From: Trueperaceae bacterium
GTDB lineage: Bacteria > Deinococcota > Deinococci > Deinococcales > Trueperaceae
Reading direction: 5' to 3'
NCBI GenBank assembly: GCA_034521815.1
Contig: JAXHLW010000013.1
Location: 1,696,001 to 1,760,000 of the forward strand
Length of the DNA: 64,000 nt
The notes beneath the pieces were generated by a model. It made no database searches and had not been told where the DNA came from. It saw only the letters and a list, made by a program, of their open reading frames with translations. Shown here one piece after another: positions 16,345 to 59,478 of this stretch (positions are counted from its first letter, which is position 1; every line of letters begins with the position of its first letter). The position numbers and the translations under genes were made by a program.

Positions 16345-16368
16345 CCGCACCGTGCTAGCCTCCGCCCC

Positions 16369-21806: not shown

Positions 21807-21814
21807 CGTCGCTC

Positions 21815-21858
21815 GACCTCTCCCGGACGCGCGCTCCCGTGCGCGTCCGGGAGAGGTC
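21815..21858 (+). terminator. Perfect 18-bp stem-loop between the SBP and permease genes (mRNA stabiliser/partial terminator)
   Basis: GACCTCTCCCGGACGCGC (21815-21832), 8-nt loop, GCGCGTCCGGGAGAGGTC (21841-21858). Confidence 0.65.
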
Positions 21859-21889
21859 CAGCGTCGACCCCACCGATGAATCTTCAGCT

Positions 21890-22841: not shown

Positions 22842-22849
22842 GGAATCCG

Positions 22850-23734
22850 ATGACGACGCGAACCTCGACCGACCGTGGCGACCGGCTGGGCAAGCGCCCC
22901 GTCGTCGACTTCCTCCGTCGCTTCGTACGCCACCGGCTCGCCGTCCTGGGGGCCTTGATCATCGCGACCCTGGTGATCGTGGCGGCGTTCGGCCGCGCGC
23001 TGGCGCCGTACGACCCGTTGGGCATGGACTTCGGCGCGGTGTTCGCCCCTCCCGGTCCGGAGCACCTGTTCGGCACCGACGAGTTCGGGCGCGACATCTT
23101 CTCGCGCATCCTGTACGGGGCGCGCATCTCGCTGCAGGTCGCGTTCATCGCCGTCGGCATCAGCGGAACCCTGGGCGTGGCGCTCGGCCTGCTGGCCGGC
23201 TTCCTGGGAGGCTGGCTGGACGAGCTGGTGATGCGGTTCATGGACGTCCTGTTCGCGTTTCCCGCGGTGCTCCTGGCGATCACGATCATGGCGATCCTGG
23301 GCCGCGGCGTCGGCAACGCGATGATCGCGATCGCGATCGTGTACGTTCCGATCTTCGCGCGGGTGACGCGGGGAGCGGTGATCAGCGTTCGCGGCCGCGA
23401 GTTCGTCATCGCCGCCCGCGCGCTGGGAAAACGACCGTTGGGCGTGATGCTCCGGCACGTGCTGCCCAACGCGCTGGGCCCGATCATCGTGCAGACCTCG
23501 CTGAGCCTGGCGTTCGCGATCCTGGCCGAGGCCGCGCTGTCGTTCTTCGGTCTGGGCACGCAGCCGCCCGATCCCAGCTGGGGCCGCATGCTCTCGGAAG
23601 GCCGCGGCTTCCTCAGGCAGGCTCCCTGGATGGGCATCTTCCCCGGCCTGGCGATCATGGTGTCGGTGATGGGGTTCAACTTCCTGGGCGACGGCCTCCG
23701 CGATCTGCTGGACCCGCGGTCCACGCGTTCCTGA
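22850..23734 (+). CDS. ABC transporter permease (DppC-like)
   Basis: HLFGTDEFGRDIFSRILYGARISL, EFVIAARALG, RHVLPN, EAALSFFGLG, PSWG and NFLGDGLRD. Confidence 0.93.
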   Translation: MTTRTSTDRGDRLGKRPVVDFLRRFVRHRLAVLGALIIATLVIVAAFGRALAPYDPLGMDFGAVFAPPGPEHLFGTDEFGRDIFSRILYGARISLQVAFIAVGISGTLGVALGLLAGFLGGWLDELVMRFMDVLFAFPAVLLAITIMAILGRGVGNAMIAIAIVYVPIFARVTRGAVISVRGREFVIAARALGKRPLGVMLRHVLPNALGPIIVQTSLSLAFAILAEAALSFFGLGTQPPDPSWGRMLSEGRGFLRQAPWMGIFPGLAIMVSVMGFNFLGDGLRDLLDPRSTRS

Positions 23735-23735
23735 G

Positions 23736-26095: not shown

Positions 26096-26119
26096 AACGA
26101 CCCGCTCGAACCCGAGCGA

Positions 26120-26151
26120 GCGGCCCCGAACCGTGAAAGGTTCGGGGCCGC
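26120..26151. terminator. Perfect 13-bp stem-loop between convergent genes, likely bidirectional terminator
   Basis: GCGGCCCCGAACC-GTGAAA-GGTTCGGGGCCGC. A smaller hairpin CGCTCG-AACC-CGAGCG lies at 26103-26118. Confidence 0.65.
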
Positions 26152-26182: not shown

Positions 26183-29100
26183 CTACCAGCGGAACAGGCC
26201 GTCCCCTTCGATGCCGATCGTGAACCCGGCGTCGTCGTAGGGCGTGAGGAGGGTATCGCCGGTGCTGTAGCCCAGGCTCAGCCACAGCGAGTCGACGACT
26301 TCGATTCGGAACTCGGCGGTGAGCGACGCGTCGAACGCGCTCAGCGCCGGACGGGCGACCGCCTGGCCGTAGAGGACGGCGTCGGCGTCGCGCTCGAACA
26401 GGACGAGGGGCACGACGACCCCAGGCGCGGCTGGACCGCGAACGGCCTCAGGCGATCGCCCAGGCTCGTCTCCATCGGCAGATCGACGGCCGGAGCGCCA
26501 ACGAGCCGACCGTCGCCGGCGACCAGCAGCCCCTCGACGTCCACTTGCACGCCGAAGCCGGCGTTGATGGTGGTGACACCGTCGGCGACGACGCCGTCGA
26601 GGTACCCGATGGCTCCGCTGGGAACGAGACGTCCTGCGTGCCGGCATCGACTCCGACGGTTCATCGCTGGTCGCGTCGCCGCTGGATCCGGACGCGTTCG
26701 CGTCGGGGTCGACCGTGTCCAGGTCGGCCCGGACGGCCGCACCGAAACGGCCCTCGACGGTGGGCGCCAGTCGCAGGTCGAGATCGACGGCGTACGCGAT
26801 CGCTTCGTGCGCGCCGGCGATGGCGGCGAGCAGGTCGACGGTCGTGGCGTCGTCGGCCGGGAGGACGACGTCCAAGCCGATCTGGCCGTCGATTGCCTCG
26901 TCGCGGTAGCGAACCGCGAAGCCGGCTCGCCACTCGGTGCCCCCGTCCGTCAGGACGGCCGCGCCGTAGAGGTCGGCGTCGACCCCGTCGCCGAGCACGA
27001 AGGGAGCGTTCACGCCGAACCGTAGGCGGTTGCTGGACGTCTCGCCAGCGAGTTCGTAGGCGACCTCGAGCTCGACGCCGCCGATGGTGCGCGCGACGCC
27101 GACCTCGCCTTGCAGGTCGCCGCCTTCGAGCCGCGCGGTTCCCACGAGGGCGGCTCCGGCCACGTCGATCGAGGTGGACAGGGTGGTGAGGGGCGCCCCG
27201 CCACCGACGAGCGGTTGGTCGTGGCCGACGTCGATCCGCACCGGACCGATCTCGCCACCGACGCTCAAACCGGCACGCCACGCGGCGTCCCGCCAGTCGT
27301 ACGAGGTGGCGGCTTCGACGTCGAGCGCGCCGGTCCGCCTCGCGACGTCCAACGTGGTGGTCGCGAGATCGGCCGATTGTTCGTGGCCGATCCCGATCGA
27401 CCAGACGTCGGTCAGGCGGACGCCGACGCGAGCGTCGCCGGTCACGCCGTCGGCGGAGCGGTACCCGAGTCCGGTCTCGATCGCGACGGGGTCGAGGTCG
27501 AGCCGGACGCCGAGCGCCGCACGCTCGACGCCGCTGCCGATCATCGAGGCCGACAGGTCGGCGTCGCCGCCGTCCCAGTCGGTCGTGACCTTCAGCGCCG
27601 CCTCGAAGCGGTCGCCGTAGGACGCGCCGACCTCGACACGGGTCGCACCCAGGTCCACGTTCAAGCCGGCACCGGCGACGATGCCGTCGCGCGGGGCGCC
27701 CATGGGGACGTAGGTCACGGCGAGTTCGGGGCGCTCGCCGTCGGGGCCGAGGATGGCGACCGGGCCGATCAGGACGATCTCGGCGCCGTCCAGGACGTAG
27801 TCGACGCCCGGTTCGAGGCGGACGCGCTCGTCACCGCGCACCCGTTCGACGGCGAGACTGCCGCTGGCGGGGACCTCGGCCAACGTCACCCGGCGCAAGC
27901 CGGCGACATCGAAGCTTTCGCGCACGACGTCGCTGCGGACGACGCCGAGGTAGCCGGAGAGCGTCACGGCCTCGTCGGCGTCCACCTCGGCGCGGAACGC
28001 GGTCGCCGCGGGGCGCTCGCCGACGGCGGGCGCGGACAGGGCTCCGTAGCGGTACTCGACGCTCCAGCGGTCGTCGCGCACGATGAAGGCGATGCCGTCC
28101 TCGCTGGCAAGATCCTGCTCGAAACCGTCCTGGGGAACCAGGCGCCACGCTTCGGTCGGAACCTCCGCACGGTCGTACGGCATCAGCAGACTGGCGAAAC
28201 CGGAGTCGGGCCGCCAGGCGACGCCCAACGCGCCTTCGAGGCGAACCCCGTCGAGCCGAGCATCGACGCGGGTGCGGACCTGAGCACCGAAGCTCGCGAA
28301 TCCGGAGAACGGTGCGAGGCGGGCCGAGGCGTCGTACAGCGCGAGGTTGGGCGCACCGACCTCCTCAGCGGGCAGCAGGGCGAAGTCGACGACGTGCGGT
28401 CCGTAGCCGACGATGCGACGCGCGAAGCCGTCGATCGGGGCGAGGTCCGGCACGCTGCCGGGCAGCAGCGCGACGACGCGCACGTCGATGGGAACTTCGG
28501 CGAAGAGGTACCGACCCGCGCCGTCGCTGATCGCCGTCAGGCCGTCGGCGCGCGCGATCCGGGCCCCTTCGACGGGCAGGTCGCCGTCGCCGAAGCGGCC
28601 GTCCTCGTCGAGGTCCAGGAAGACCCGACCGAAGACCGCGCGATCGTCGTCGACGACCGCACGGACGTCCAGGATCACGACGAGGTCGAGCGTCATGGCG
28701 TCGCTGTAGACGACGCCGAACGGATCGACGATCCGCGCCACGACGTCGTAGCTGCCCGTCGCCAGGGCGTGCTCGTCCGGAACGACCAGCGTCCAGCGAC
28801 CCGTCTCGGGATCGTGATCGAGGTGGCCGTCGCCGAGCTCGTAGGCTGACCCCGTCGAGCGTGACGGTGAAGACGTCGCCGGGACGCAGCTCCGCGGTGC
28901 CGGTGACGGTGGGGGTCGCGGTGCCGACCGTCGCCTGATCCACGGTCGGCGGGTTCGGCGCTGCGAGGCGCACGAGCAGTTCGTCCTCGGTCGCGTCCGA
29001 CGTCGCGTTCCCGGCCGCCGTCGTGACGGTCACGACGACGTCGTAGAGGCCCTCCTCGAGGGCATGCTCGGTCGGAACGACGAGGCTCCAGCGACCGCTG

Positions 29101-32100
29101 GCGGCGTCGTAGTCGACCGCGCCCGAGGCGACGTCGTACAGGACGCCGTTCACCACGATCGTGAGCGTATCGCCGGCGAGGACCTCGGCCGTACCGCCGA
29201 GGACCGGCGTCGCGTCGTCGCTGACGAGCGGGTCGACCGTCGGCACGGCGGGCACGCGCGTGTCGACCACGATCTCGCCCGTTCCCTCGGCAGGGCCGGT
29301 GACGCCGTTGCCCGCCAGGTCGTAGGCGATGATCGTCACGTCGTAGGCGCCGCTGGCGAGCGCGTCCTCGGCCGGGATCGCGATCCTCCAGGTCCCGTCC
29401 GGATCGAGCTCCGCAGGATAGGTCGTGCCGGCGACGGTGACCTCGATCCGATCGGTGTCGCCCACGTCGTAGCCACCACCGAGGATCGGTGTCGGATCGG
29501 TCGTGAGGACCGGATCGAGGGTCGGCATCGCGGGGGGCACCGTGTCGACGACGATCGTGCGTTCGGTCGTGTCGCTGGCGTTGCCCGCCGGATCGTAGGT
29601 GGTGGCCTGGAGCACGTAGGTGCCGTCGGGGAGCGAGTCGTCGGCACTGCGGTCGACGCTCCACCCCTCTCCGTCCCGGTCGGCGATGGTGTCGAACACG
29701 ACCTCGCCCGCATCGTCGACGAGGACGATCTGGACGTCCAGTCCGGAGCGGCCCGTGCCCTCGAAGAGGAGGGTCGGATCGTTGCTGACGAAGTCGCCAT
29801 CGATGCCGCTGTCGTCCGAGATCGCGTCGATCGTCGGGGCGGCATCGGTCCCGCCGGTGATGACGATCGTCACGGTGGTCTCGGTCCCATCGGCGGCGAT
29901 CAGCGGGAAGGTGTCGACGAGCTCCTCACCGTCGTCGAGGGCGTCGACGTCCGGGCTCGTCCCATCCAGCCGGTAGCTCCAGACGCCGGACGCGCCGACG
30001 GTGAAGGTGGCGTAGCCAGCGTCGCTGACCGTGGCGGTATCGACGGGCTCGAAGGCGTCGTCCGTTCCATCGACGTCGCTGGTCGCTGCGTCGCCGCCGA
30101 CGACCTGAACGACCGCGTCCTCGTAGACGCTGCCGGACAGGTCGCCGGCGAAGACGGCGGGATCGTTGGCGCCGGTGATGGTGAAGGCGATTCGGGCGGG
30201 CGTGTCCGCTCCCTGCGGATCGCTGACCACCACGTCGAAGGGGACGACGGGGGTGGACCCGGCGGACACGGCGTCGATCGTCGCGGCATCGGGCGTGAAG
30301 GCGAAGTCCCCATCGGCGTTCAGGCTCAACGTGCCGTACGGGCTGGTGCCGTCCTGCCCGGTCGCGAACGACCAGGCCAGGTCGGTGACGAGATCGTCCT
30401 CGTCGACGTCGCTCGCCTCGAGCGTGCCCGTGATCGGGTCGAACGCGTCGGTGGCGGGCGTATCGACGTACCCGAAGTCGTACGTGCCGCTCACGACCGG
30501 GGCGTCGTCGACGCCGGTCACGGTGACGATCACGGTCGCGCTGCGCGCGCCGCTCTCGCCGTCGCTGACGGTGTAGACCATGCGGGTCTCGACGCTGTCA
30601 CCGACGTCCAGCCGTTCGAAGTCGCCGTCGGGATCGAACGTCAGTTCGCCCGTGGACGCGATCAGGAAGGTGCCGCCGTCGCTGCCGGCCGTCGCGACAC
30701 CCACGTTGGCGGCGGCGCCGTCGACGAGTTCGACGAACAGCGCGTCGCTGTCGAGAGCGGCGTCGTTGTCCAGCACGTCGGCTCCCGACAGGGCGGTGTC
30801 CTCGTCGGTCTCGTACAGGTCGTCGGTCGGTTCCGGACCGCGGTTCGAGACGGTCCAGGTGAACGTCTGCGTGGCGACGAGTCCGGACGCGTCGGTGCGC
30901 GTGATGGCGACCTCGTAGACGCCCCGGTCCACGCCGTCGCCGACCTGGCTCGCGGCGGGATCGATGGTGCCGGACACGAGGCCGGTCGTGGGATCGATGG
31001 AGAGCGAGCCGGGCGCTCCCGCCATCGCGTAGGAAACGGTGTCGGGCACGTCCACGTCGGTGAAGAACGTCGAGACGTCGAAGGACACCGGGCTTGCGTC
31101 GAGCCCATCCTGGTCGGGGATGGTCCCGACGGTCACCGGTGCGTCGTTGCTGCCGGTGATGACGATCGTGACCGTCGCCTCGGTACCGTCGGCGGTCCGG
31201 ATCGGGAAGGTGTCGTTCAGGGTGGCGCCGGACGCCAAGGCGTCGACCGTAGGATCGGCGTCGTCCAGCACGTAGCTCCAGTCGCCCTCCGAGCCGACCG
31301 TGTACGTGCCGTAGCCGCCGGTGCTGGAGCTGAGGGTCGCGACGGCCTCGAAGGTCGTCGCGGAATCGACGTCGGACGCGACGGCGGTGCCGGTGGCGGT
31401 AGCCGACCCACGTGGACCGTCGGACTCGACACCGGCTTCGACGACGCCGCCGGTGAGATCGCCGGACACGTCGGCCGGATCGTTCGCGCCGGCGATGGTG
31501 ATCGTCACCGTCTGGACCGCCGAGGCGTCGGACGCGGTGCCGGAGTCGTCGGTCGCGACGACGTCGTAGGCGAGGACGAGGGTGTCGCCCTCGTTCAGGT
31601 AGGTGAAGGTCGCCGCGGCGGGCTCGAACGTCCAGGTGGCCGTGCCCTCGACGCTGCCGGAGAGGACCACGTCGTCCGCGTCCACGACGAGCATCGGGAG
31701 CAGATCGTCCGTCGCGTCCAGCGTGCCGAGCGGGCCGCTGGTCGTGAGACCCGTCACGGCCACGCCGACCGTGTCGCTCAGGTCGACATCGCGGACGGTC
31801 AGGCTGCCGGTCGCGCGGAACGGCGTCGCGTCCTCGGCGAGCGTGGCCACGTCGGAATCGCCGCTCTGGAGGGCGATCTCGGGCGCGTCGTTCACGCCGG
31901 TCACGGTGACGGTCAGGCTGGCCGTGTCGCTGCCGCCCTCGTCGTCCGTGATCGTGTAGCCGACGGCCGTGTCGACCGACTCGCCATCGGCGAGGTACTG
32001 CAGGGCCGAGCCGGGGGCGACGGCGTAGCTACCGTCGGAGGCGAGGACGAACGAGCCGAGCTCCGAGCCGGTCACGGTGCGGCTTCCGCCGTCCGTGATC

Positions 32101-35100
32101 GCCAAGCCGGAGACGGCCGAGACGCGCAGGGCGTCGCCGTCGACGTCGCTGGCATGGGCGGCGGTCAGCAGGCCGCCGGCGGCGTCGACGCTCAGAACCG
32201 TGTCCTCGTCGGTCGTATCGGACACGGGCGTCGCGGTCGGCGCGGGGTTGCGGATCGTCCAAGCGAACGTCTGCGACGTCGACGCGCGCACGTCGTCGAC
32301 GTCCGCGTCGGACGGGTCGCGGTCGTAGGCGGTGATGGTAACGGCGTAGGCACCGTCGCTGTCCGGACCACCTTGGCTGGCGCTGCCGTCCACGGTGCCG
32401 GTGACGACGCCCGTAGCTGGGTCGATGGCCAGGCCCGCCGGCGCGTCGGAGAGGGCGAAGGTCAGCACGTCGCGCGCGTCCGGATCGGCGAAGCCGCCGG
32501 ACGGGTCGACGGACACGACCTCCGCGTCGTCGGACGTGCGCGGGGCGAGGACGGTGCTGGTGGGCGGGCTGTTGGCGCCCGTCAGCGTCAGGGTCACGTC
32601 CACGGTCGCCGTGCCGCTGGCCTCGTCGCTGTGGAGGACGGTGTAGACGACCTCGATCGTCTCGCCCTCGCCCAGCTCGCGCAGGGCGGCGTCGGCGATG
32701 GCGAAGGTCCAGCCGGTCGTGCCGGCGTTGGCGCGGCTGTCGACGCCATCGCCGCTCAACCTGAGCGCGGTATTCAGGACGGCGTCGGTCAGGCCGGTCG
32801 GAACGATCGCGGCGCCTTGCGGCGTCACAGCGCTCACGGCCACGGTTGCCAGCGAGCCGTCGGTCGCGTCGATGTCGCCGAAGATCACGGCGCCGGTGGC
32901 GGTCAGCTCGCCGCCCACGACGTCCACGCCTTCGGTGACCGTGCCGGTCAGGGTCGAACCGAGTCCGTTCACCTCGGGCGCGTCGTTGACGCCGTTCAAA
33001 GTGATCGTGACGGTCTGCGCCGTGGCGCTCGCACCGTCGTCGACCTCGATCTCGTAGGCGACCTCGACGGCATCGCCGGCAGCGAGGAACTGCAGCAGCT
33101 CGTTCGCCAGCGTGAAGGTCCAGTCGATCGTGCCGGCGTTCACGGCATCGGAGTCGGCGCCAGGGCCGGACAGCGTGAGCGGTCCTGCCGCGATCGCCAG
33201 GGCGTCCGCCAGCTCGGTCGGCAGGCTCACGCCGGCGCTCGGGGTGATGGAGAGCAGGTTCGTGACCGACGCGGTCGGCGCGTCGGCCGCATCGGGATCG
33301 GCGAAGGAGAGGTCTCCGGAGGCGGACACGACCGTGGCGTCCGCCGGATCGGTCACGTCCTCCGTGACAGAGCCGGTGACGACGCCCGGCGTGACGATCG
33401 GGGCCACGTTGCCGCCTTGGAGGGTAACCGTGACGGTCTGGTCGGCCGTGGCCGTACCGTCGTCGAGTCGGACGACGTACGTGAGGACGAGGCTCTCGCC
33501 CGCGTCGAGGTACGCGAAGGCGTCGGCGGAGGCCGTGAACGTCCAGGTGACCGTGCCGGTCGTCGCACCGTCGGCCACGCCTCCGGTCGCCACCATGAGG
33601 GCTCGCAGCTCCTCGGTGTCCAAGGTCGAGCCATCGGTCACCGATCCGGCTTCGACCGTGACTGCCGCGATGGACGCGCTCACGACGTCGCTGCGGTCGA
33701 GGTCGGCGGCGGCCAGCGTGCCGGTATCGGACAGGACCTCACCGCTCTCGCTCAACGTCGTCGAGGTGGGCCCCTCGCTCCAGGTCGGCGCGTCGTTCGC
33801 GCCGGTCACGGTGATGGTGACGTCCTGCGTCACGGTCACGCCCTGCGTGTCGCGCGCGCCGAGGCGGTAGAGGAGGTCGATCGCTTCGCCCGACGCCAGG
33901 CGGCGGAAGGTCTCCGCGCCCGGATCGAACGTCCAGGTCGCCGTACCGGTCGTGGCGCCGGCCGTGACGACGGTCGCGTCGGTCGGACCGGAGGCGGTGA
34001 ACATCGACGCCAGGTCGACGTCGCTCCAGCCGACGGATGCGCCGCTGCCGGTCACGCTGACCAGCGTGGCGGTCGCGTCGACCACGACGGTGTCGCCCAG
34101 GTCGACGTCGGTGAGAGTCAGGGTGCCCTGCTGGGTCGCAGGGACCGTTCCCTGCGACAGCGTCGCGGTCGCCGAGTCGGTTCCGACGACGCTGAACGTC
34201 GGGGCGTCGTTGGCGCCGGTGATCGTGACGGTCACGATCTGCGCGGCGCTCGTGGCTCCGTCGCCGATCGTGACGCGGTAGCGCTCGACGATGGTCTGGT
34301 TGGCGGTCAGGTCCTGCACGTCCGCGTTGGCGACGGCGTAGCTCCAGTCGGCTTCGCCGGTGGCACCATCGGCCGCGGCCACGCGCGGCGTGGCGTCGGC
34401 GGCGAACGTTCCAAGCTGGGTTCCGCTAGCCGCCGTGCTGTCGATGAACTCGGTCGCGACGGTATGCGCATCGCTCCCGTCGGCATCGCCGAAGGTCAAC
34501 GTGCCGGCGTCGGTCAGGTCGCCGCTGCCGTCGACGGCGACGTCCTCGGTCAGTGCGGAGGTCACGTCGCCGCCGGTGATGACGGGCGCGACGTTGCTGC
34601 CGGTGATCACGATCGTGACGGGCACCGTGGCCGAGGTCGCCGGGGTCGGCGTCGCGTCGTCGCTCACCAGCACGTCGTAGACCACGGTCAGCGTCTCGCC
34701 TGCAGCGAGGTACCCGAGTTCAGCGGTGCCGGCGCTCCAGGTCCAGGAGACAGTGCCGGTCGTCGCGCCCGCGGGCACGACGGGCTCGAAGGCGACGTCG
34801 AGCATCGCTGCGAGCGCCTCGTCGGACGGCTGCGCGCCCGCGGAGGCCACGTCGCTCGTTCCGTCGTTCTGCACGGCGCTGGCGAGCGTGGCGGACACCG
34901 TGACGACGTCCGCGACGTCGACGTCCGCAGCGCTCAGGCTGCCGCTCGCATCGAGGGCGTCCACGCCCTCCTGCAGGGTCGCGCCGTCGCTGTCCCCGGT
35001 GCCGACGCTCAGCGTCGGGGCGTCGTTGGAGCCCGTCAGCGTGATGGTCACGCGCACGACGGCGCCGCCGCCCTCGCCGTCGTCGACGAGAACGTCGTAG

Positions 35101-38100
35101 CGCTCGACGATCTGCTGACCGCCACGCAGGAACTGGAGGTCAGCGTTCGCCACGTCGTACGTCCAGGTGGCGACGCCAATCGCGCCGCCGGTCGCGGCCG
35201 TCGGTGACGGTCGCGTCCAACGTTCCGAAGGCGGCCCCGCCAGCCGCGCTGGTGTCGACGAAGCTCGCCGCCGCCGTGTGCGCGTCCGTGAGATCCAGGT
35301 CGGTCAGGTCGATCGTGCCGGTCGCGGACAGGCCGCCGTCGATCACTGCGCCGTCCTCGCTGACGGCTCCGGTCGGGTCGGCCGAGGCGGCGTCAGGCGC
35401 GTCGTTGGCGCCGCGCACCACGAAGATCAGCGTCGCCGTCGCGTCGTCGGCACTCGTTCCGTCGCTGACGGCGGCCGGGATGGAGATCGTCAGGGTTTCG
35501 CCGGCGGCCAGGAAGTCGAGATCGACGGCGCTCGGCGCGTAGCTCGCCGCGAAGGCGAAGTCGCCCCCGGTGGTGGTCGCCTCGGTCGGATCGAAGGTGA
35601 CGACGCCGTCCGCCGCGAGCGGCGCGAGGGCCGTCTCGGCGTCCGCGTCCAGGGCGCCACCGGACCAGGTGATCGTGGCGCTGGCGAGATCGACGCTCGG
35701 TGTCGCCGTGTCGCCGACGTCCGCGTCCGTCACGGCGAAGGGAACGGTGTCGGACAGCGCTTGCGCGCTGGCGTCGGCCGCCTCGTCGATGACGGTGGGC
35801 TGGATCGCGAGGGTCGGGGCGTCGTTGGTGCCGGTGACGGTGATCGTCAGCGACGCTGCGTCGGCCCCGCCCTCGTCGTCGGTGAGGGTGAACGGGAGGC
35901 TGGTCGGCGCTTGCTCGTTCGTACGCAGCGCATCGAAGTCCGTACCAGGGTCGAAGGCGTACGTGCCGTCCGACCGCACGGTGAAGGTGCCGCCGTCGCT
36001 GCCGGCGACGATGACGTCGGACCCGTCGGCGATCGTGGCGCCCGCCGCGATCGAAACGCGCAGCGCGTCGCCGTCGGCGTCGGTCGCGCCGCTCAGCAGC
36101 GCTCCGGCAGTCTCCGCCGCCAGGATGGCGGCGTTCTCGGCCGTGGCGCCGGCCACATCGCTCGCGACCGGCACGGTGTTCACGAACACCAGCGTGAAGG
36201 CGTCGCTGACGGCGTCACCATCGGCATCGGTCGCCGTAACGGTCACCGTGAAGACACCGCGGGTCGTGTTCACGCCGTCGATCGTCTGTTGGCTGGCGTC
36301 GGCGGGAACGGTGGCCACGCCGTCGAGCTCGAGCGTGCCGGCCGTCGTCATGGTCAGCCACGCCGGCAGCCCTTCGGCGGTGAAGCTCAAGGCGTCGCCG
36401 TCGGCTGCCGTGAAGCTCCCGCTCACGGCCAGCGAGAAGCCGGCGGTTCCGTCCTCGACCGACCGATCGGCGATCGGCGTGACGACGGTCGGTCCGACGT
36501 TCGTGACGGTCCACTGGAAGCTGGTCGTCACGGTCAGGCCGCCGGCGTCCGTCGCCGTGACGTCGATGCTGTACGGGCTGCCCGCCGACGCGCCGGACGC
36601 GATCGTGCCATCGATCAGGCCGGTGTCGGACAGCGTGAGCCCGTTGGGGAGCGTGCCCGCCGTGACGGCGTAGCTGTGGGTGTCCCCCATGTCGACGTCG
36701 CCGAAGAACGGCGCGACGTCAAGGTTGGCGGCGGCGCCGTCGACGCTCGCCTGGTCGGCGATCGTGCCTGCGGTCGGGGCGTCGTTCGCGCCCGTGATGG
36801 TGACCGCGACGGTCGCCTCGGTGCCGTCCTCGGACCGGACGACGAAACTGTCGGTGAGGGTGTCGCCTGCCGCCAGCGCGTCGACCGTTCGGTTCGCGTC
36901 GTCCAGCGTGTAGGTCCAGGCGCCGGCCGCGTCGACCGTGTAGCCGCCGTAGCCGTTGGCGCTGGCCGCGTCGGTCGTGACGGCCTGGAAGGCGTCGTCC
37001 GTCCCGTCGGCGTCGCTGGACGTGAAGGCGCCGCTGGCCGTCACGTCTCCGGGCGTGCCGTTGGCGGTGCCGCCGGCCTCGGTGACGCTGGTGTCGGGCG
37101 TGCCTTGCGGCGTGATGACCGCCGCGTCGTTCGTACCTGCGATCCAGATCGTGACGGGGAACGACGCGAAGGAGCCCGCCCCGTCCGTCGCGCGCAGGCC
37201 GTAGGTGAGGGAGATCCGCTGGCCCTCGGCGAGGCCGTCGAAGGCTTCGGCTTCGCTGTCGAACGTCCATGTCAGCGTGCCGGTCGTCGTACCCGCACCG
37301 AGGTCGGAGGCGGCGCCCATCATCGCGAGCAGCGCCGTATCGTCCAATGCGCCGGGCAGCGTGCCGGTCGTCGCGACCGACGCGACGCTCGCATCGACCA
37401 CGTCGGCCAGGTCCAGATCGCCGACGGTCAGGCTTCCCGTCGCGGTCAGCTCGGCGTCGGTATCGGTCAGGTCGGCCGTGCTGTCGTCCCCGCTCTCGCG
37501 GGTGAGGGTCGGAGCGTCGTTGCTACCGGCGATCGTGATCGTCGCGGTCGGCGCGTTCGACGCGGCGTTCGCGGCGCCCGAATCGTCGGTCGCGACGAGG
37601 TCGAAGGACAGGGTGATCGACTCGGACGCGGCGAGGAAGTCGAGGTCCTCGGTCGTCTCGAACGTCCAGCCGGCCAGGTCGCCGTCGATCGTCAGATCGG
37701 CCTCCAGGGCCGCCGTCAGCGCGGGCGGGAGCGTTCCGCCGCTCCAGGTCGCGTCGCCGTTGCTGCTCGCGGTGACCGAGGCCACGCCGTCGCCCGCATC
37801 GACGTCCGCGACCGACAACGTGCCGGTCGTGCGCAACGTCGCGCCGGCGTCCGCCTCCGCGATCGTGCCGCTGGCGTCGTCCAGCGTCAGGATCGGCGCG
37901 TCGTTGCTGCCGGTCAGGGTGATCGTGACCGTCTGCGTCGCGATCGGGTCCGCGGTGGCACCGTCGTCGATCGTGACCGTGTAGACCTGCGTGCGGACCT
38001 CGCTCTCCTGGAGCGTGTCCAGATCGGCCGCGTCGACGGTGAAGGTCCAGGCGACCGTGTCGGCGCCTTGCTCGATCGCGTCGAGCGTCAGGGCGCCCAG

Positions 38101-41100
38101 CGGGCTCGCGACCGTGCCACCGGATCCGTTCCCGACGGTCGCCGTGACGGTCGCCACGTGCGTATCGGTCGTGTCGACGTCCGCATAGCCGATCGTGCCG
38201 GCGTCGATCAGGGTGCCGTCGTTCTCGTCCGCCGCGCCGTCGGGCCGCTCCGTGGCGGCGCCAGTGGCGGTCGTGGTGCCGACGTCGATCGTCGGTGCGT
38301 CGTTGCTGCCCGTGATCGTGATCGTGACGGTCTGGTCCACGCTGCCGCTGGATCCGTCGGTGATCGTGACGGTGTAGACCTGCGTGCGGGTCTCGCCCTC
38401 GGCCAGATCGTCGATCGCGCCGTCGGAGACGGCGAAGGTCCAGCCCACGGTGTTGGCGGCCTGATCGACCGCCCCGAGCGTCAGAGCGCCAAAGGGGCTG
38501 GCCACCGTCTCGCCGGCGCCGTCCACGACCGATACGCCGACCTGCGCCGTGTGTGCGCCGTCGTCGTCGATGTCCGCGAAGGTGATCGTCCCGGTCGCGG
38601 CGAGTTCGGCGGTCGACTCGCCGCTGGCGCCGTCGGCCAGTTCGGTGACGCTGCCGGTCGCTTCGGTGGAACCGACGACGATCGTGGGCGGGTCGTTCTG
38701 GGACGTGACGGTGATGCCGACGGTGTCGCTGGAGGTCAGCGAGGTGACGCCGCCCTCCATCGCGCCGGTCGCGCCGCCGTCGTCGATGGTGACGGTGAGG
38801 GTCGTGTCGGTCGGCGTATCGCTGTCCGCCGTGTACGTCAGGGTCGCACCGCCGCTGCCGGCCAGGACCGCGTTCACGGAGCTCAGGGTGCCCTGCAGGG
38901 TCAGCGTGTCGCTGCCCGACCCCGTGATCAGGACGACGGTGCCGCCCGCGCCGGCGCTCAGCGTGCCGGTGTCGGCGCCCGTCGGGACCGAAAGGCTGAC
39001 GGTCAGGTCGGAGGATCCCGCATCCACGTCGCCGACGACGATGGTGCCGGTCAGGTCCAGAGGCGTCTGCTCGCTGGCCTCGTACGCGACGCTCGGGACG
39101 GTGACGGTCGGGGCGTCGTTGACGGCCGTGACCGTCATGAGCACGGTCGCGACGTCCGTCAGGGCGCCTCCGGCGCCGGTGTTACCGAGGTCGTCGGTCG
39201 TGACGGTGAGCGTGAACGTTCCGTTCGCGTCCTGCGCGGGCGTGTAGACGACGGTGCTCAGAGCGGCGTTCACCTCGGCGGCGGTGCCGGTGAGGGTCAC
39301 GCTGCCGGTGCCGTCGTCATCGACGGTGGCGTCGCTGCTGGTGTCGACGCTCAGCGTGCCACCGTCGACGGCGAGGACGACCTGGACCCGGTCGGTCGCA
39401 CCGGGAACGTCGGTGTCGGCGACGTCGCCGACGGTGATGGCCGTACCGTTCGCCGGAGACAGGACGAGGGTCTCGTCCTCGACCAGGCTCTGGCCAGCGG
39501 GAACGCTGGTGGTGGGCTCGTCGTTGACGGCGGCGATCGTGAGCGGGATCTGCTGGGTCGCCACGTTGCCGGCATCGTCGGTGACGGTGACGGTGAAGGC
39601 ATCGACGCCGTTGACGTCGGCGTTCGGCGTGTAGCTCCACACGCCGCTGAGGGTGTTGATCGTGGCGGCTCCGAGCGTCGGCTCGTCGCCTTCCTCGATG
39701 CGGAAGCCGGGCGTCTCGATGCCGTCGCCGGCGTCCGCGACGGTCAGGGTTCCGGTCGCGGTGGCGTCCTCGTTCAGCGTCGCGCTCGTGTCGCCGCCGA
39801 AGACGGTGGGATCGTCGACGGCCGTGATGGTCACGGTCACCGTCGCGGTCTCGGTCACGCTTCCGCTGGTCACGGTGTAGGTGTAGGCGTCGCTTCCGTT
39901 CGCATTCGGGTTCGGCTCGTAGCGGACGGTTCCCGCGCTAGCGTCGACGATCATTGTGGTGCCCAGCGTGCCTTGGGTGACGGACGTTAGCGTCGGGGTG
40001 CCTTCGAAGGTGTCGTTGCTCAGAAGGTTGGTGGTGACGGATCCGTCCTCGTCGACCGTCTGCGCGTCGTCCGCGATGTCGACACCGGGGGTGACGGTCA
40101 CCTGGACGACGTGGGTCTCGCTGGTGCCGTCGCCGTCGGTGACGCTCACCGTGAACGCGTCGGCGCCGTTGAAGTCGGCGTCGGGCTGGTAGCTCCAGGC
40201 GCCGGTCGTCGCGTCGATCGAGGCGCTTCCGTGGATCGCCTGCACGGCGACGGCGAAGTCCAGCGGGTCGGCCAGGCCGTCCGCGTCGTCGGCGACGGTG
40301 AGCGTGCCGGCGACCTCCGTGTCCTCTGCGCCGCTGGCGCTGGTGTCGCCGCCGAACGTGGCGGGGTCGTCCACCGCGGTGATCGTGACGGTGACCGTGG
40401 CGGTCTCGATGACGTCCCCGCTGGTGACGGTGTAGGAGAAGGCGTCGGTGCCGTTGGCGTCGGGATCCGGCGTGTAGCGGATCGTGCCCGCGTCGGCATC
40501 CAGGATCGCGACGGTGCCGCTCGTTCCTTGCGTCACGGTGGTGATCCGCGGCGTCGCGTCGAAGGTATCGGCGGTGGCCCCGTTGGTGCCCGTGAGGAGG
40601 TTCGCGTCGATCGCGACGTCCTCGTCGCTGGTCAGGGCGTCCGCCGTGATGTCGGCGACGGCGGCGACCGTGAGCGTCGCCGCGTCGGTCGCGCTGGAGA
40701 AGGCGCTGGTCCCGCCGCGCACGCTCAGGTCGGCGTAGTCGCCGGCGGTGCCGCTGGTGGCGTCCCAACCGCCGAAGGTCAGCGCGGTCGTTCCGTTCCA
40801 ATCGGCGTCGGGGAGAAAGCGGAGGGCGTCGGCACCGTGGAGCAGCAGGCCGCCGCCGGCGTTCGCGCCGCTGAAGTCGAACGCGGTCCAGGTCGTGCCG
40901 TCGGTCGTGTACTGCCACGTCCCGTGGGCGTCGTCGACGGCCGTGACGTAGATGCCGCCATCGACATCGCCGTCGAAATCGGCATCGAGATCGGTGACGC
41001 TGGTGGCGACCAGGCTCGCGACGGGGGTTCCACCGTTGGCGGCTTCGGCCACGTCCTCTAGGGCGCCGGTCAGCGTCGGTGTCGCGGAGACGTCGAGGGT

Positions 41101-44100
41101 CGGCGCGTCGTTGGTGCCGGTGATGGTGATGGTGACCGGCTGCGGGGTGGCGTCCGTCGCGGTGTAGGTGATCGTGTCCGTGACCACGTCGCCCGCGTCC
41201 AGCGCCTGGACGGCACCCTGATCGAGCGTGTAGGTCCAGGTCCCCGCGGAGAGGACGAACGCGCCGTAGCCGGCGTCGCCCGGCGTGGCGGCGACGTCCT
41301 CGAAGGAGGGAGCGTCATCCTCGTCGACGTCGGCGATGGCGACCGTTCCGGTCGAGGTGACCGGCGCGTCGCCGACGTCGCCTTCGGTCACCGCGCCGGT
41401 GAAGGTGCCGCTCACGAAGGGCACGTCGTCGCTGCCGCTGATGGCGAAGGTCGCCGTCACGGTCGCGGTGGCGCCGAGGTCATCGCGGACGCGCACGGAG
41501 AACGCGTCGTTGACGTCGTCGCCGGCGTCCAGCGCCTGCGTCGCCGCCGCATCGTCGTCCAGCGCGTAGCTCAGTTCACCGGTCGCGACCGTCAGCGTGG
41601 CGCTGCCGTAGTCGGTTCCCTTCCGGAAGGTCGTTCCGGAGTTCTCTGGGGATCCAGTCCTCGCCCACGAGCCAGACCACGTCGTACTGCATGCTGCCGT
41701 CGACGTCGCCTGCGGTCAGTGCGATCGTCGCCGCGTCGGTGCCGGGGTCGCCGTTGGCGACGCCGCCGGCCTCGACCAGGCCGGCGCTCGGCAGGCCGGC
41801 TTCGATCGTCGGCCCGTCGTTCGTGCCCGTGATGGTGATCGTGACCGTCTCGGTCGCCGACGTGGCGGTCCCGTCGTCGGCCGGTGAGGTCGTAGACGAG
41901 GGTGAGGGTCTCGCCGGCGGCGAGCAGGTCGAGGTCCGCGGCGATCTCGTAGGTCCAGGCGCTGGTGGTGGCGGAGAAGCCGGCCTCCAGAGCGGCGTCG
42001 AGGCCCGCGTCCAGCGTGCCGCCGGTGCGGCTCCACACGACGCCGCCGCTCAGGCTCGCGTCGATCGTGAGCGCGGCGTCGTCGACGTCGGCGACGCTCA
42101 ACGTGCCGCTGGTGCTCAGCGTCGCGGTCCCGTCGCCTTCCACGAGCGCGCCGCTCGCATCGACGACGGTCAGGACGGGCGGATCGTTCGACGGTGATCA
42201 CGGTCGCGCCGAGCGTGACCGTGTCGCTCGCGTAGACGGTACGTGCCTCCGTAGCTCGCGACGTTCACGCCTGTGGCGCCGTCGTACACGACGCCGCCGC
42301 TCTCGATCAGGCGAACCGTGAGGTCGGTCGTGGCCCCTTCGTAGTCGGCCGCGGGCAGGAAGCGCAGCTGCGCCGTCGCCGTCAGGGTGAGCGCCGAGGC
42401 GTCGGACAGGCCGGCCGGCACCGAGGTCCAGCTCGCGCCGGCGTCCAGGCTGTGCTGCCAGCGGCCCACGCCCACGTCGACCGGGTTGGCGGTGATCGCC
42501 ACGCCCGCGAGCGTATCGGCGGTGCTGCCGCCCGCGTCGTCCGCGGCGTCGGAGAAGACGCCGGCACCGAACAGGTCGGCGAGCGTCTGGCCCGCCGGGT
42601 CGGCGGCGTCCTCGGTCACGTCGGCGGCGTCCACGCGGGACACCAGCGCGGTGGGCGCATCGTTGACGGACGTGACGTCGAAGGTGAGGGTGGACGGCGC
42701 GGCGTCGATAACCTGACCGCCGCTCGCGGTCGAGCCGTCGTCCTCGACCTGCACGGTGAAACTGGCGTAGCCGTCGCCGTTGGCGTCGGGCACCGGCGTG
42801 AAGACGAGCGTCACGAGGTCGGCGACCGCCACGCGGTCGTTCGCCTGGGCGGCGACGCCGTTCAGCGTCAGGCTTCCCGAGGCGGGCAGGCTGGCGATCG
42901 TCACGAACGCGAAGGCGTCGGCCGGATCGTCGTCGGGATCGGCGAAGCCGAAGTCGCTCGCGACGAACGTGTGGGCCTGATCCTCGAACACGTCGATCGT
43001 GGCGTCGGCGCCGCTCGGCGCGTCGCTGACCTGAGTCACGTCGATCGTCAGGGCGGAGGCCGCCGCGCTCCAATCCGTACCGTCGGACACGCGGAAGGTG
43101 AGCGTGGCGTATTCGGCGCCGTTCTCGTTCGTAGCGGCGGTGAAGCGCAGCCGACCGTTCGCGAGCTCGGTCGCGTCGATCTCTTCGGCCGCGGCGACCG
43201 TGATCCAGGTCGTCCCGTCGTCGCTGCGCTCCAGCGTTCCTGCCGTCGGAAGCGTGACGATGCGGATGGCCGCGAGGGGGCTGCCTTCGACGTCGGCGTA
43301 GCTGCCGAAGTCGTCGCTGGCGAGGGCGGTGGCCGTGTCTTCGAGGACGGTGACGGCGGCGTCGCTGGTCGTGGGCGCATCGTTCACCGGGGTGACGTCG
43401 GCCCCGACCGTGACGGCGTCCAGCGACCAGGCGCCGGTCGCGAGGTCGGCGTCGCCGTTCGCGGCGGCGGTCAGGTCGACCGTGATGGTCGGGTCGGCGG
43501 TCAGGGCCGCGCTGCCGTCGGCCAGGCGGATCGACAGGGCGCCCATCGCGCCGTTGGCGTCGGCGGCCGGCACGAAGCGCAGCTGCGTGGTCGCCGAGAG
43601 GATCAGCGCCGCGCCCTCCCCCAGTCCGGCGGTAGGAACGTCGGTCCAGCTCGCGCCGGCTCCGACCTGCCAGGTGCCTTCTACCGCCGTGGCGGCGTTG
43701 CCGACCAGGGCGACGTAGCTGAAGGGGGTGGCGGTCGAGTCGCCGCCGCTGGCGGTCTGATCGTCGGCGGCGTCGTCGTAGCGAGCACCGAGCAGGTCGA
43801 GGAAGGAGACCGGGCTGGTCGTGACGTCCTCGTCGGTCGTGAGCGTGACGGCGATCGCCGCGTCGACGTTCGGCCGGTCGTTGACCGGCGTGACGGTCAG
43901 GGCGACGTCGAGGGTCGCGACGTTGGCCGTGTCGCCGACGTTGTCGTCGGTGGCGCCGTCCTGGTCGGCGTTCTCGCCGGCGTCACCCAGGTCGGAGACG
44001 CTGAGCGTCAGCGTGTCGTTACCGTGGTAGTCGGCGGTCGGCTGGTAGCGCAGGGTATCGAGCGCGGCGTCGATCGTGGCGCGCGTGCCCGTGACGGTCA

Positions 44101-47100
44101 TGCCGGCGGTCGCCGTTCGCGCCGGCGGCGAAGGTCAGGCCGGTCGCGTCTCCGAAGCTCAGCGTGCCGTGCGATACGCCGCACCGTCGCTTCGAGGTCG
44201 TAACCCACGATGTCGGGGTCGCTGACCGTGAAGGCTCCGACGCACGGTCGCCTGCGGCGTCCTCGGCGAGGGTGGCCGATGCCGGTCCGGTCAGGACCGG
44301 CGGATGGTTGACGCCGTCGACGGAGAAGGTCGCTTGCGCCGCGTCACTCAGGGCGCCGCCTCCGACGTCGCCCCCATCGTCGATGGTCGCCGCGAGGGTC
44401 TCGACACCGGAGAAGTCGACGTCGTTGTCGTAGATGAGGTTGTTCGGTTCGGTCAGAACGGCCTGCAGGTCGGCGACCGTGCCGGTCAGCGTCACGCTGC
44501 CCGTGATGTCTGCCGGCGACGTCGACGCCGGTCGTGTCGAAGAACCGCAGGCGCCCGTGCTGAACCGACAGCGTGAGCGTGGTGGCGCCGGTCTCGGCCG
44601 CCGCCCCGGCGTCGGGGTCGGCGACGAGGATGCCGGCGATGACGTACTCGACGTTCTTCGGTCGCGGGACCCAGCGGATCGGGCAGGGTGACGCTGGGCG
44701 CGTCGTTGACGGGCGTGACGGTGATGTCGACCGACACGGTGTCGGTGAGCGACGTCTCTCCGTCGACGGGCTGGCCGGCCTCGCCGAGGTCGTCGATCGT
44801 GGCCGTCAGCGCGATGGTCGGGTCGGGGCTGATCGCTGTCGGCGGTGTAGCTCAACGTCGCACCGCTCGTTGCCGGCGAGGAGGGCGGAGATCTCGGCGA
44901 TCGTGCCGTCGACCTGGACGCTCTCTCGCTGCCGTCGCACCGTGATCGGTCGCGCCGGTCGTCCCGGCGTCGGCGGCGAGGGTGCCGCTGTGGTCGCCCG
45001 CCGGGATCGTGACGGTGAGGCGCACGTCGGCGCTCTCGGAGTCGGGATCGCCGACCGTGATGCCGGTGCCGTGCAGGTCCGTGGCGATCTGCTCGGTCGC
45101 GGCGTAGCCCGCTTCCGCGATCGTGACGGTGGGCGGGTCGTTGACGGCGGTGACGTTCACGCGTGACGACGTCGTCGCCGGTCAGGCTGCCGCCGCTGCC
45201 CTGCGCCGCGTCCACGTTGTCGTCGTCGAAGCGGTAGCGCAGATCGACCGAGGCGGGCGGCGTGTCGGAGGCGTTGGCGTACGTGACGGCGCTGGCCACC
45301 GCGTTCGCCTGTGCCGGCGTGGTGGTCGCGAGGAAGGTGATCGTGATCTCGCCGCCGTCGAGGACGTACGTGGCGACGTTCGTTGCGCCCACCTGCACGT
45401 CGGCTGCCTGTCCAGCGTGACGCCCGCGCCGAAGCCGAGGACGTCGGCGGCGTTCGCGGCGAAGCCGCTCGCGCCGTCGCTGCGGGCCACCGTGAGGGTG
45501 GCGCCTTCGAAGGTGTCCTCGTCGGTGACGGTGAGCTCGACGTCGTAGAGGGTGACGCTCGGGTCGACCGCCACGGGGGTGCCGAGCACGCCCGGCCGAG
45601 ACCCTCGACGAAGGTGTTCGCCGAGGTGGCGTCGAGGTCGCGGACCTCGGGCCGCGTCGTTGACCGGGTCGACGGTCGTCGCCCAGCGTGACGGGGGTGG
45701 ACCAGGTGCTGGCGTCGCCCAGGGCGAGCGCCGCGGTCAGGTCGCTGGACGCCGCGATGGCCTGCTCGGTGTCGGCCACGCGCACGGTGAGCGCGCCGGC
45801 GGCGCCGCTGGCGTTGGCGACGCTGGGCAGGAAGCGAAGGCTCGCGGTCGTCGGCGAGCACGAGGGCGGTCGCGTCCGCGGGCGCCGGGTCGTTCGCGAT
45901 CGCGACCCAACCGCTGCCGGCGTCGTACTGCCAGATCCCCTTGCGTGTCCGGGTCGGCCGCGTTGCCGACGACCGCGATCCCGCCCAAGGCGGTGGAGGC
46001 GTCGGCGCCGCCGATGATGGCGGTCCGGTGGTCGCGGGCGTCGCCGTAGTCCAAGTACGCGGCCCCGCCCAGGTCGGCGACCGTCGTGCCGGCCGGATCC
46101 GTCTGGTCCTCGTCGATCGAGCGGAGCACGGCGTTCGTCGCCGTCGGACGGTCGTTGACGTTCGTAACCGTCACCGAGAGGGTGCGATCGGTCGCCGTCC
46201 AGGAACCGGTCCGGCAGGTCGGCGTCGCCGTTCTCGTTCAGGTTTTCGAGGTCGGTCGCGTCAGCGCTCGAGGCGAGCACCGCGTTGCCGTCGGCCAGTC
46301 GCACCTGCAGCGTGCCCGGCGTGCCGTGGAAGTCGGCGGCGGGCACGAAGCGCAGCAGCGCGCTCGACGGCACGACCAGCGCGCTCGTGACGGCGAGGCC
46401 GGACGTGGGCACGTCGATCCAGCTGGTGCCGGCGTCGCTGGACAGCAGCCAGGTGCCTTGCGCGGCGGTGTAGTCGGTCGAGCCGACCACCGCGAGGTAC
46501 GATGAAGGCGGTCGACGTGTCGCCGCCGAGCACGGTCGCCGTGGCGTCGTCGGTCGGCGTCGGAGTACCCGACGGCCAGGCCCGAGAGCGCCACGCCGTC
46601 GGGCGTCGTGTCCTCCGTGACGTCCGCGAGGGCGACGTCGTCGCCGGCGGTCGGGCGATCGTTGACGGGCGTGACGTTGACGGCCACGGCGTCGCTGGTC
46701 GGTCGAGAACGGCGTGGTGCCTCCGGTGTCCGCGGCCGTCGCGTCGGCAGTGCCGCCGTTCGGTGCCGGCGCTGGCGTCCCAGGCCCGCAAGGTGAGCCC
46801 CTCGGTGAGGCTGCCGTGCCAGTCGGGATCGGGCTGGAAGAAGAGGCGCGTCGAGGCGTCCTCGAGAGCAGGCGCGCGCCGGTGTCGCTGGCCGTGAACG
46901 ACGTCCAGGTGGCGCCGGCATCGGTGCTGAACCACCAGGTGCCCACGCTCGATTCGGTCGCGATCACGGCGACGCCGGTCGGGTCGGTCGGTGTCGACGT
47001 CGGCGATGCCGCCGGCCAGGGCGGACACGAGGGTGCCGACGTCGCCCGCCGGGGCCGCGTCGTCCTCGGTCTGGGCGAGGGCCAGCGCGGTGTCGCGAGC

Positions 47101-59100: not shown

Positions 59101-59183
59101 CCTCCTGGCCAGCCGAAGGACGCGGACAGCAGCACGGCGCATGCGATGACGAAGGAAAAGCGGGTGGCGATGCGCGTGAGCAT
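26183..59183 (-). CDS. Giant repetitive surface adhesin (~11,000 aa) with Sec signal peptide, cadherin-like/CSPG/VCBS/Ig repeats, an SdrD-B-like domain and a C-terminal beta-barrel-like region; split into many ORFs by apparent sequencing frameshifts
   Basis: AGGAG RBS and ATG 59183 (MLTRIATRFSFVIACAVLLSASFGWPGGTVAAQ). Continuous VNDAP/GTNDAP repeat boundaries run across ORFs 58242-59342, 53512-59268, 42170-44101, 35140-41496, 28365-35153 and 26183-28741. At the junctions I checked, frame changes fall inside repeat units with no intergenic gap or new RBS. Ends in GFTIGIEGDGLFRW. Confidence 0.75.
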
Positions 59184-59478
59184 GGTCGTTCTCCTGGCGG
59201 CAGAGGCGCCGCGGGGACCGCCGAGGGGACGGGGGTCGAAGATGAATGAGGGGGACGCGATCGGCCACGACGTCCTGCCCAGGTACGACAACGCGACGAG
59301 GGTCGCACGTCTCGACTCACGGAATCGTGAATAGGTGCGCATGTGCCCGATCAGGGACGAATGTTCCTAGCCGGACTCCCCAGCGTGTGTGAACCAAAGC
59401 GGGACCGGGGCGACGACGTGCTGCAGCGTTCGATGCGCATGGGCGACGAAGCTGGCGTGCTTGGCCCGGCTCGGGTGC

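Follow-up and report, generated by a model that had tools for sequence, protein, structure and literature searches.

What role does a beta-barrel of no named family play at the C-terminal end of a giant Ig-repeat protein? The window (the whole 64,000-nucleotide stretch of Trueperaceae DNA that was analysed) carries such a barrel on its minus strand. A sequence-only reading had described the stretch from 28,645 to 26,183 as an SdrD-B-like domain followed by a large barrel that does not resemble the classical autotransporter domain. Eleven peptide strings that it quoted, together with the C-terminal GLFRW, were all recovered, 12/12, in a single minus-strand frame that spans 28,636 to the stop codon (26,183). 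We found that this module is the 3' part of a single minus-strand gene, 59,183-26,183, of ~10,980 codons (~11,000 aa). As judged from a frame path and from collinearity with an orthologue, the gene (26,183..59,183) encodes a signal peptide, an Ig-like repeat passenger, an SdrD-B domain and a predicted 38-strand barrel. All features described below lie on the minus strand unless indicated.

G008, a genome from the same genus, contains an unbroken orthologue of 8,261 aa counted from Met. It shares 83% identity with the window protein over the module, and the DNA identity is 86-88%. The two genes are collinear except for ~10.2 kb of additional repeats (31,589..41,817), seen as a gap in the blastn alignment and missing in the orthologue; the passengers of these close orthologues differ in length by 3,400 aa. 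The window gene is broken in frame. The frame-path computation required 48-55 shifts, depending on the penalty (~50 indels), and encountered no internal stop. Relative to the intact orthologue, the module carries a net +55 nt at ~26,630-26,715 (near 26,637), a +1/+2 pair near 26,507/26,480 and a -1 near 26,422, which bears out the earlier suspicion of additional frameshifts around 26,420-26,640. A further +1 near 28,846 lies at the passenger junction, upstream of SdrD-B. The extra bases at 28,846 and 35,203 are absent from contigs of public sequencing runs, which possibly derive from the source sample; no contig among those listed spans the breaks at 26,637 and 26,422. No RNA dataset was listed as containing the sequence. 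Given that the run contig lacks the 28,846 base, passenger and barrel share one reading frame. The run contigs at 28,846 and 35,203, together with the intact orthologue, suggest that the breaks are most likely long-read consensus errors. Judged by sequence, passenger, SdrD-B and barrel are genuinely fused, and a third fused copy (P0004, 67% identity) backs this.

The protein begins with a putative Sec-type signal peptide of ~32 aa (59,088..59,183), read by eye from the translation, with a basic N-region, a hydrophobic core and an AxA-type end. The orthologue shows the same layout. The passenger (28,646..59,087) comprises ~10,000 aa of cadherin-like, Big_9, Big_13, He_PIG, VCBS, tandem-95 and Ca_tandemer repeats, as assigned by Pfam on pieces of the window and by Pfam and NCBIfam on the orthologue. 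Just past the stop, between convergent genes, lies a 13-bp GC-rich hairpin (26,120..26,151, no strand assigned) seen in the sequence and kept in G008. It is a possible terminator without a U-tract, and the terminator scan made no call there. The G008 copy has gene neighbours unlike those in the window and stands alone, without a partner gene.

The structure predictions were run on the intact G008 orthologue. AF2 modelled the barrel alone with a pLDDT of 88.2 and a pTM of 0.78 (65 sequences), and SdrD-B plus barrel with a pLDDT of 83 and a pTM of 0.73, weaker around strands 29-32. The barrel (26,183..28,342), defined by this model, strand analysis and alignments, is predicted to sit in the outer membrane. 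The secondary structure of the model runs through 7 strands, then the inserted beta-domain of 84 residues, then 31 further strands; this count of 38 merges two short split elements and may be off by one hairpin. Hydrophobicity alternates across the family in 37/38 strands. The window barrel differs from that of G008 by an 18-residue additional loop between strands 30 and 31. The proposal of far more than 12 strands therefore agrees with the model, as does the distinction from the classical autotransporter barrel, for no PF03797 match was found. None of the outcomes that would have overturned the sequence-only reading (a soluble beta-sandwich, a solenoid or a 12-strand PF03797 barrel) appeared, since the AF2 model is a large beta-barrel.

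The turns after even strands have a median of 2 residues and the loops after odd strands a median of 4; every one of the long loops (40, 13, 84 and 12 aa) follows an odd strand. The modelled topology would thus be of the usual outer-membrane kind, with N- and C-termini periplasmic. We infer that the barrel is closed, because closed-porin alignments span model residues 1-700 and because one small domain contacts strands 1-3 and 29-38 together in the complex described below. By geometry, ~38 strands correspond to a C-alpha diameter of 68-74 Å, compared with 64-69 Å for 36 strands and 22-24 Å for 12. On geometry alone, the predicted barrel would be wide enough to pass folded Ig domains, as had been supposed.

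No Pfam or NCBIfam model covers the barrel, and profiles of the barrel, the insert and the whole family found no barrel relative among PDB sequences. A single-sequence protein search at near lengths also gave no match, because the relatives are longer. Foldseek and VIA-align returned generic barrels only (TM-score ≤0.24 by query); SprA was absent among the matches listed, and these were filled by generic barrels. The best ESM Atlas match (0.91), with recognition below the trusted range, is a lead only.

Two elements interrupt the regular strand pattern. The 40-residue loop between strands 3 and 4 (28,094..28,213) has low confidence in the monomer model; in the predicted complex, the corresponding loop of the homologue touches SdrD-B. 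The segment GSLAVERV..ELAVTY, earlier recognised as an insertion, forms in the model a small folded beta-domain of ~84 residues between strands 7 and 8 (27,686..27,937). By topology it would lie on the extracellular side, and it is a candidate partial lid or plug. This domain resembles the tailspike TSP4 (Z 8.9, rmsd 1.4, 63 aligned) and gives weak HMM matches to SprA (best E 0.002) and to a phage tail-tube family, in 5/17 members each. SprA itself reportedly carries an insertion at a comparable place in its strand order. Given that the insert matches SprA and phage tail proteins equally, the similarity is no proof of SprA ancestry, and the domain may be a small mobile module. At the C-terminal end, the tryptophan of the window protein, which had been taken for the BAM beta-signal, is real. 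It is not a conserved signal, however: the last residue is aromatic in 9/140 full-length barrels, which rules out the terminal aromatic residue as a family signal. The conserved part is the beta-signal motif, defined as polar-x-G-x-x-hydrophobic-x-hydrophobic. The last barrel strand contains it in 114/140 proteins, compared with 52/140 control windows, and it is followed by a tail of median 11 residues.

Among 1.84 billion representatives, a 13-sequence profile recovered 1,156 clusters with E≤0.001, of which 132 reached 1e-30; the best 150 of the 1,156 were inspected. The barrel profile matched 39/128 genomes of the same taxonomic family. The giant fusion occurs, among the matches listed, only in the window genome (G000) and in G008. 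Named members include Thermus thermophilus HB8 and HB27 and Deinococcus radiodurans plasmids (33 records in the plasmid search). The window barrel is 26-30% identical to Deinococcota members over the full length including the insert, and a profile-profile comparison with the OmpA-bearing forms gave a probability of 100% and an E of 6e-70 over 859 columns (first row common to both alignments). The suspected kinship with barrels behind DUF11-repeat proteins is therefore one of homology, both to the DUF11-associated barrels of Deinococcota and to DUF11/SdrD-B/OmpA single-chain proteins.

The relatives combine these parts in several ways. In the remoter single-chain forms the order is DUF11 - SdrD-B - Ig - (OmpA) - Ig - barrel. 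Among 140 full-length proteins, an Ig module precedes the barrel in 127, SdrD-B lies farther upstream in the chain in 26, and SdrD-B immediately precedes strand 1 in 4. No such Ig module before the barrel occurs in the window protein or elsewhere in G000. Usually the relatives divide the parts between two genes. A gene ending in SdrD-B and a ~90-aa C-terminal domain (CTD) lies directly upstream of the barrel gene at 17/19 loci, and 2/19 are without it. These loci have a barrel chain without SdrD-B and at least 1 kb upstream (four were left out as truncated or in-chain); they are kin, chosen as best matches. The named strains HB27, HB8 and D. radiodurans R1 all have the SdrD-B+CTD gene upstream of the barrel (3/3); the HB8 pair carries the tags TTH_RS11750 and TTH_RS10920. 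DR_B0037 appears in a supernatant table of PMC5382914; this tag is not tied to the D. radiodurans barrel locus. The passengers before SdrD-B vary among relatives and include DUF11/DUF7507, Calx-beta with beta-helix, Big_9/CshA and cadherin. Canonical loci contain one to three additional DUF11 genes with a signal peptide and without the SdrD-B+CTD end, and the barrel locus of T. thermophilus HB27 has just two genes, the SdrD-B partner and the barrel.

FastTree was run on 108/157 barrels (all SdrD-containing and locus rows, and every second other row). The G008 and P0004 barrels formed a long branch within a clade of Deinococcota loci. Direct adjacency of SdrD-B and barrel was found at three places, at least two of them split by fully supported branches. 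No second barrel, SdrD-B+CTD partner gene or DUF11 gene over the cut-off was found in G000 (83.5% complete) or, as searched, in G008 (96%), and both genomes have a BamA gene. These comparisons suggest a derived state for the window gene, a minimal fusion from which all periplasmic spacer domains have been lost.

The domain that the fusion places against the barrel is the SdrD-B domain (28,373..28,645), followed by a linker of ~10 residues to strand 1 (28,343..28,372; from sequence and model). The AF2 model of the orthologue domain matches S. aureus SdrD B (10ps: Z 11.6, rmsd 2.0, 93 aligned; 4jdz: Z 11.1). It has a CnaB/transthyretin-like fold, and the EF-hand-like DxDxDG loop is visible in the sequence at ~28,580-28,615, so the earlier assignment stands. 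Pfam gave no match for the domain of the window or the orthologue, and the homologous domains of the partner genes scored weakly against PF17210, at 24.8-29.7 bits and below the gathering cut-off of 29.7.

We predicted the complex of a natural two-gene pair (L020), consisting of the barrel and the C-terminal 198 aa of the upstream gene's product. The ipSAE values were 0.78, 0.79 and 0.78, compared with 0.00 for the best of 3 controls. With our own alignments, roughly 116/157 solved complexes and 2/215 mismatched pairs reach the ipSAE mark. The runs agreed in at least 90% of contacts, and the partner pLDDT was 80-81. The interface comprises SdrD-B residues 2-102 plus one residue on the partner side, and strands 1-3, loop 2 and strands 29-38 on the barrel side. 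Along the strands, 24 contact positions alternate; across the family they are polar, with a mean hydropathy of -1.25, whereas 31 neighbouring positions average +1.69. Because they alternate and are polar, these positions face the lumen, and the contacts include conserved lumen residues that had been picked out independently. In the best contact pairs, the last SdrD-B strand runs to the periplasmic ends of strands 31-32. Judging from the 25 listed pairs, the N-terminus of SdrD-B would then point outward. PDB searches found no similar complex, and it is therefore unlikely that the docking score reflects a memorised structure. Going by the model, the barrel seems to have its functional partner in SdrD-B, docked in its lumen, a role that the sequence-only reading had missed.

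The same docking geometry accounts for the fusion, the two-gene and the single-chain architectures. It fits the fusion because a 10-residue linker can reach strand 1, and in the single-chain relatives it puts OmpA, which follows SdrD-B, on the periplasmic side, where it belongs. Other observations are less favourable. The fused barrel retains 9/22 conserved interface residues, vs 59/104 elsewhere (the alignment is uncertain around strands 30-32), and conservation of SdrD-B is not higher at interface positions (0.59) than in the rest of the domain (0.68). Many predicted contacts lie at the periplasmic turns or mouth of the barrel. The pTM of 0.73 for SdrD-B plus barrel, the long branch of the fused barrel and the two loci without the upstream gene also count against the docking model. 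In addition, an SdrD-B of ~25 Å and the 84-aa insert form no obvious seal for a pore of ~60 Å.

We therefore favour, with a probability of roughly 0.6, a model in which SdrD-B would be a pore-docked tether: the part of the chain preceding it would be displayed outside, the part following it would be periplasmic, and the window gene would be a self-contained autotransporter-like fusion. Following the signal peptide, Sec would export the chain to the periplasm. BAM would then insert the predicted C-terminal ~38-strand barrel, as the presence of a BamA gene allows. SdrD-B would bind in the lumen on the seam strands b31-b38 and b1-b3 and on loop 2, as predicted for the two-gene homologue, with its C-terminal strand pointing to the periplasm according to the contact pairs. 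The ~10,000 aa of Ca2+-type Ig repeats N-terminal of SdrD-B would reach the outside either via the unoccupied portion of the pore or, while the barrel is being assembled, via a hybrid barrel with BamA, presumably driven by folding outside the cell. The adhesin would remain tethered via the lumen-docked SdrD-B. In the two-gene relatives, the SdrD-B that ends the separate passenger would act as a docking signal in trans, and the ~90-aa C-terminal domain is a probable periplasmic stopper.

A bolder extension of this model, which we regard as tentative, is that the family is an undescribed secretion system. The ~38-strand barrel would be a dedicated translocon, wide enough for folded Ig domains to pass as a hairpin alongside the docked SdrD-B. 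It would export pre-folded, even isopeptide-locked adhesins without an energy source; SdrD-B would be a portable C-terminal secretion and anchoring signal, and the window gene a one-gene version exporting a ~11,000-residue passenger. The isopeptide-bonded CLIPPER passengers would need a folded crossing, whereas the Ca2+-type repeats of the window gene could cross unfolded. The DUF11/CLIPPER fibrillar adhesins are the usual passengers of the barrel family, although the window passenger is without DUF11. In single-chain relatives the DUF11 domain gives a match to PDB 9IFR (E 9e-12). In the accessible text of Costa et al. (10.1101/2025.04.25.650565), the CLIPPER isopeptide bond is demonstrated for one domain, and the words 'barrel', 'outer membrane' and 'secretion' are not present.

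We compared these features with known systems. Like type Va autotransporters (PF03797; NalP, Hbp, BrkA), the window gene combines a signal peptide, an N-terminal passenger and a C-terminal barrel in one chain, with a proposed linker element in the lumen and a proposed passage of the outer membrane without an energy source. Unlike them, it has ~38 strands rather than 12, no sequence match, and a folded CnaB-type domain as linker instead of an alpha-helix (there is no helix before strand 1). It also has an Ig-repeat passenger, and the same parts occur as a two-gene system as well. Type Va membership is thus rejected on the barrel and the linker, although the one-chain layout is shared. Two-partner secretion (Vb/Vd) is rejected as well: the barrel proteins have no Omp85/POTRA Pfam match, 38 strands instead of 16, and a C-terminal docking domain rather than an N-terminal TPS signal.

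The T9SS translocon SprA/Sov is described, in the accessible parts of PMC7463736 and PMC10994853, as a single-chain barrel of 36 strands, ~7 nm inside. SprA/Sov and the type B CTD-PorP pairs resemble the window system in having a very wide single-chain barrel and cargo recognised via a C-terminal beta-sandwich. In contrast to SprA, the window barrel shows no barrel-wide sequence similarity and no large cap, and its cargo stays docked or fused. TIGR04189 (cut-off 200 bits) gave no match for the module or in G000, and the insert alone matched weakly in 5/17 relatives, so membership is rejected. By analogy, the window gene would function like a type Va autotransporter, and its relatives would recall two-partner secretion or the T9SS type B CTD-PorP pairs, although the defining features of each are absent.

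Giant Ig-repeat adhesins of the T1SS (LapA/BapA/MpIBP type) are tethered in an outer-membrane pore by a periplasmic stopper; they have an N-terminal anchor, no signal peptide, and RTX nonapeptides. The window protein is similar in its repeat types (VCBS, cadherin-like, tandem-95, Ca_tandemer), its size and its proposed pore tethering with a stopper, but it differs in its Sec signal, its own barrel and its C-terminal anchor. A motif count found 0 RTX nonapeptides in the G008 orthologue, and no HlyD reached the cut-off in G000 or G008. With a signal peptide present, membership of this class is rejected.

The usher barrel of chaperone-usher systems has 24 strands. Ushers (FimD, PapC) resemble the present system in that a beta-sandwich is inserted into a large barrel, the cargo has Ig folds and the operon contains Ig-fold genes; the window gene differs in having ~38 strands, no sequence match and no chaperone or subunit genes alongside it. 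With no usher Pfam match, 38 strands and a stand-alone gene, it is rejected as a member. The barrel might nevertheless act in the manner of an usher, as a pore that assembles polymeric DUF11/CLIPPER fibres, with SdrD-B marking the base subunit and the window gene a degenerate offshoot anchoring one long chain. The one to three additional signal-peptide DUF11 genes at canonical loci and the plug-like domain inserted in the barrel would fit this idea. We consider it unlikely, because no DUF11 gene exceeds the cut-off in G000 or G008, the HB27 locus consists of two genes only, no chaperone gene was seen, the fold similarity to ushers is generic (PapC Z 11.9, rmsd 9.2), and the insert is extracellular by topology. 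A fibre platform of this kind and an SdrD-B tether are compatible at multi-gene loci.

VCBS, cadherin and Ca_tandemer repeats are typical of surface adhesins. This bears on a still more doubtful alternative, in which the barrel is an anchor or wide porin and everything N-terminal of it remains periplasmic, with SdrD-B as a plug and the Ig chain as an envelope spacer. Strand 1 begins on the periplasmic side, many predicted contacts are at periplasmic turns, and the Ig modules right before the barrel in 127/140 relatives are necessarily periplasmic or luminal. However, ~100 Ig domains with such repeats are hard to fit in the periplasm, the 3,400-aa difference in passenger length between close orthologues speaks against this reading, and the contact pairs would turn the SdrD-B N-terminus outward. 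Decay of the window copy into a pseudogene, or an assembly artefact as the source of the fusion, is very improbable: the 48-55 shifts and the breaks at 26,637 and 26,422, with no spanning run contig among those listed, point that way, but against it stand a best path free of in-frame stops, the orthologue with its unbroken 8,261 aa, another relative that carries the fusion (67% identity), run contigs without the extra bases at 28,846 and 35,203 (short-contig evidence of consensus error), and adjacent transporter genes that are split as well.

The feature, then, would be a variant of Sec- and barrel-dependent surface display and, tentatively, a new secretion system. In the literature covered, which takes in few subscription journals, we found no description of an SdrD-B/giant-barrel system. 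The sole printed anticipation found is the predicted superfamily of 38- and 40-strand outer-membrane barrels of Solan et al. 2021 (families 003 and 002; PMC8346858). Like the window barrel in its model, with closure inferred, it has a single barrel of 38 predicted strands; no function, domain partners, SdrD-B docking or fused giant passenger is described in the accessible part of that paper. The window barrel may belong to this superfamily, to which it is likened by strand number alone and not by sequence.

The predicted barrel is wider than any solved single-chain barrel that we found reported (SprA, 36 strands). It has a defined docking domain, SdrD-B, and a tractable model locus in T. thermophilus HB27 (TT_RS10775/TT_RS10780). 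The fused gene reveals the minimal unit, SdrD-B plus barrel, which is a possible display platform for large folded proteins. We found no description in the literature of how, in bacteria with two membranes, DUF11/CLIPPER and Ig-repeat adhesins with Sec signals cross the outer membrane, and the giant barrel offers a concrete, testable answer.

The giant gene was compared with its intact 8,261-aa orthologue in a genome of the same genus (G008). At window 31589-41817 the passenger has additional Ig repeats that the orthologue lacks, amounting to approximately 3,400 aa; the stalk varies in length among close relatives. The highest density of frame breaks in the passenger was located at window 44000-53500, a region with few Pfam matches. 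NCBIfam assigned VCBS repeats to this region in the orthologue, and no adhesion head domain was identified there with Pfam or, on the orthologue, with NCBIfam. Genes for a peptide ABC transporter and a membrane protein at window 20288-26136 were also split by frame breaks, which is consistent with assembly indels. Upstream of the giant gene, a sugar catabolism cluster on the minus strand (window 59300-64000) encodes two Gfo/Idh/MocA oxidoreductases, a DeoC/LacD aldolase and a PfkB kinase, but this cluster is absent upstream of the G008 orthologue.

Among the barrel relatives, one genome (G079) contained seven barrel matches. Two of its barrels (L064 and L065) are near-identical, lack part of the pre-barrel Ig module, and lie behind partners of >3,500 aa; one of these partners proved to be a Calx-beta/beta-helix protein. 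At loci L067 and L068, the barrel genes had no upstream gene ending in SdrD-B and the C-terminal domain, and the downstream gene carries SdrD-B-like repeats. In T. thermophilus HB27 and HB8 (L071 and L073), the barrel locus is on pTT27, close to CRISPR cas3 genes.

In the alignment, the loop motif between barrel strands 23 and 24 (window 27070-27030) was among the most conserved in the two-gene relatives and degenerate in the fused protein. Since this motif is outside the SdrD-B interface predicted in the modelled complex, it may serve a partner other than SdrD-B.

On the plus strand at window 12883-17898, 10 kb from the giant gene, a gene encoding a GGDEF-ATPase-TPR fusion precedes an amidohydrolase gene. 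What looks by eye like a comparable gene pair lies immediately downstream of the two-gene barrel locus in another same-genus genome (G005; L025:55-4738). GGDEF genes also adjoin the D. radiodurans barrel locus. It is possible that the giant gene and the two-gene barrel loci have a common neighbourhood with a link to c-di-GMP.
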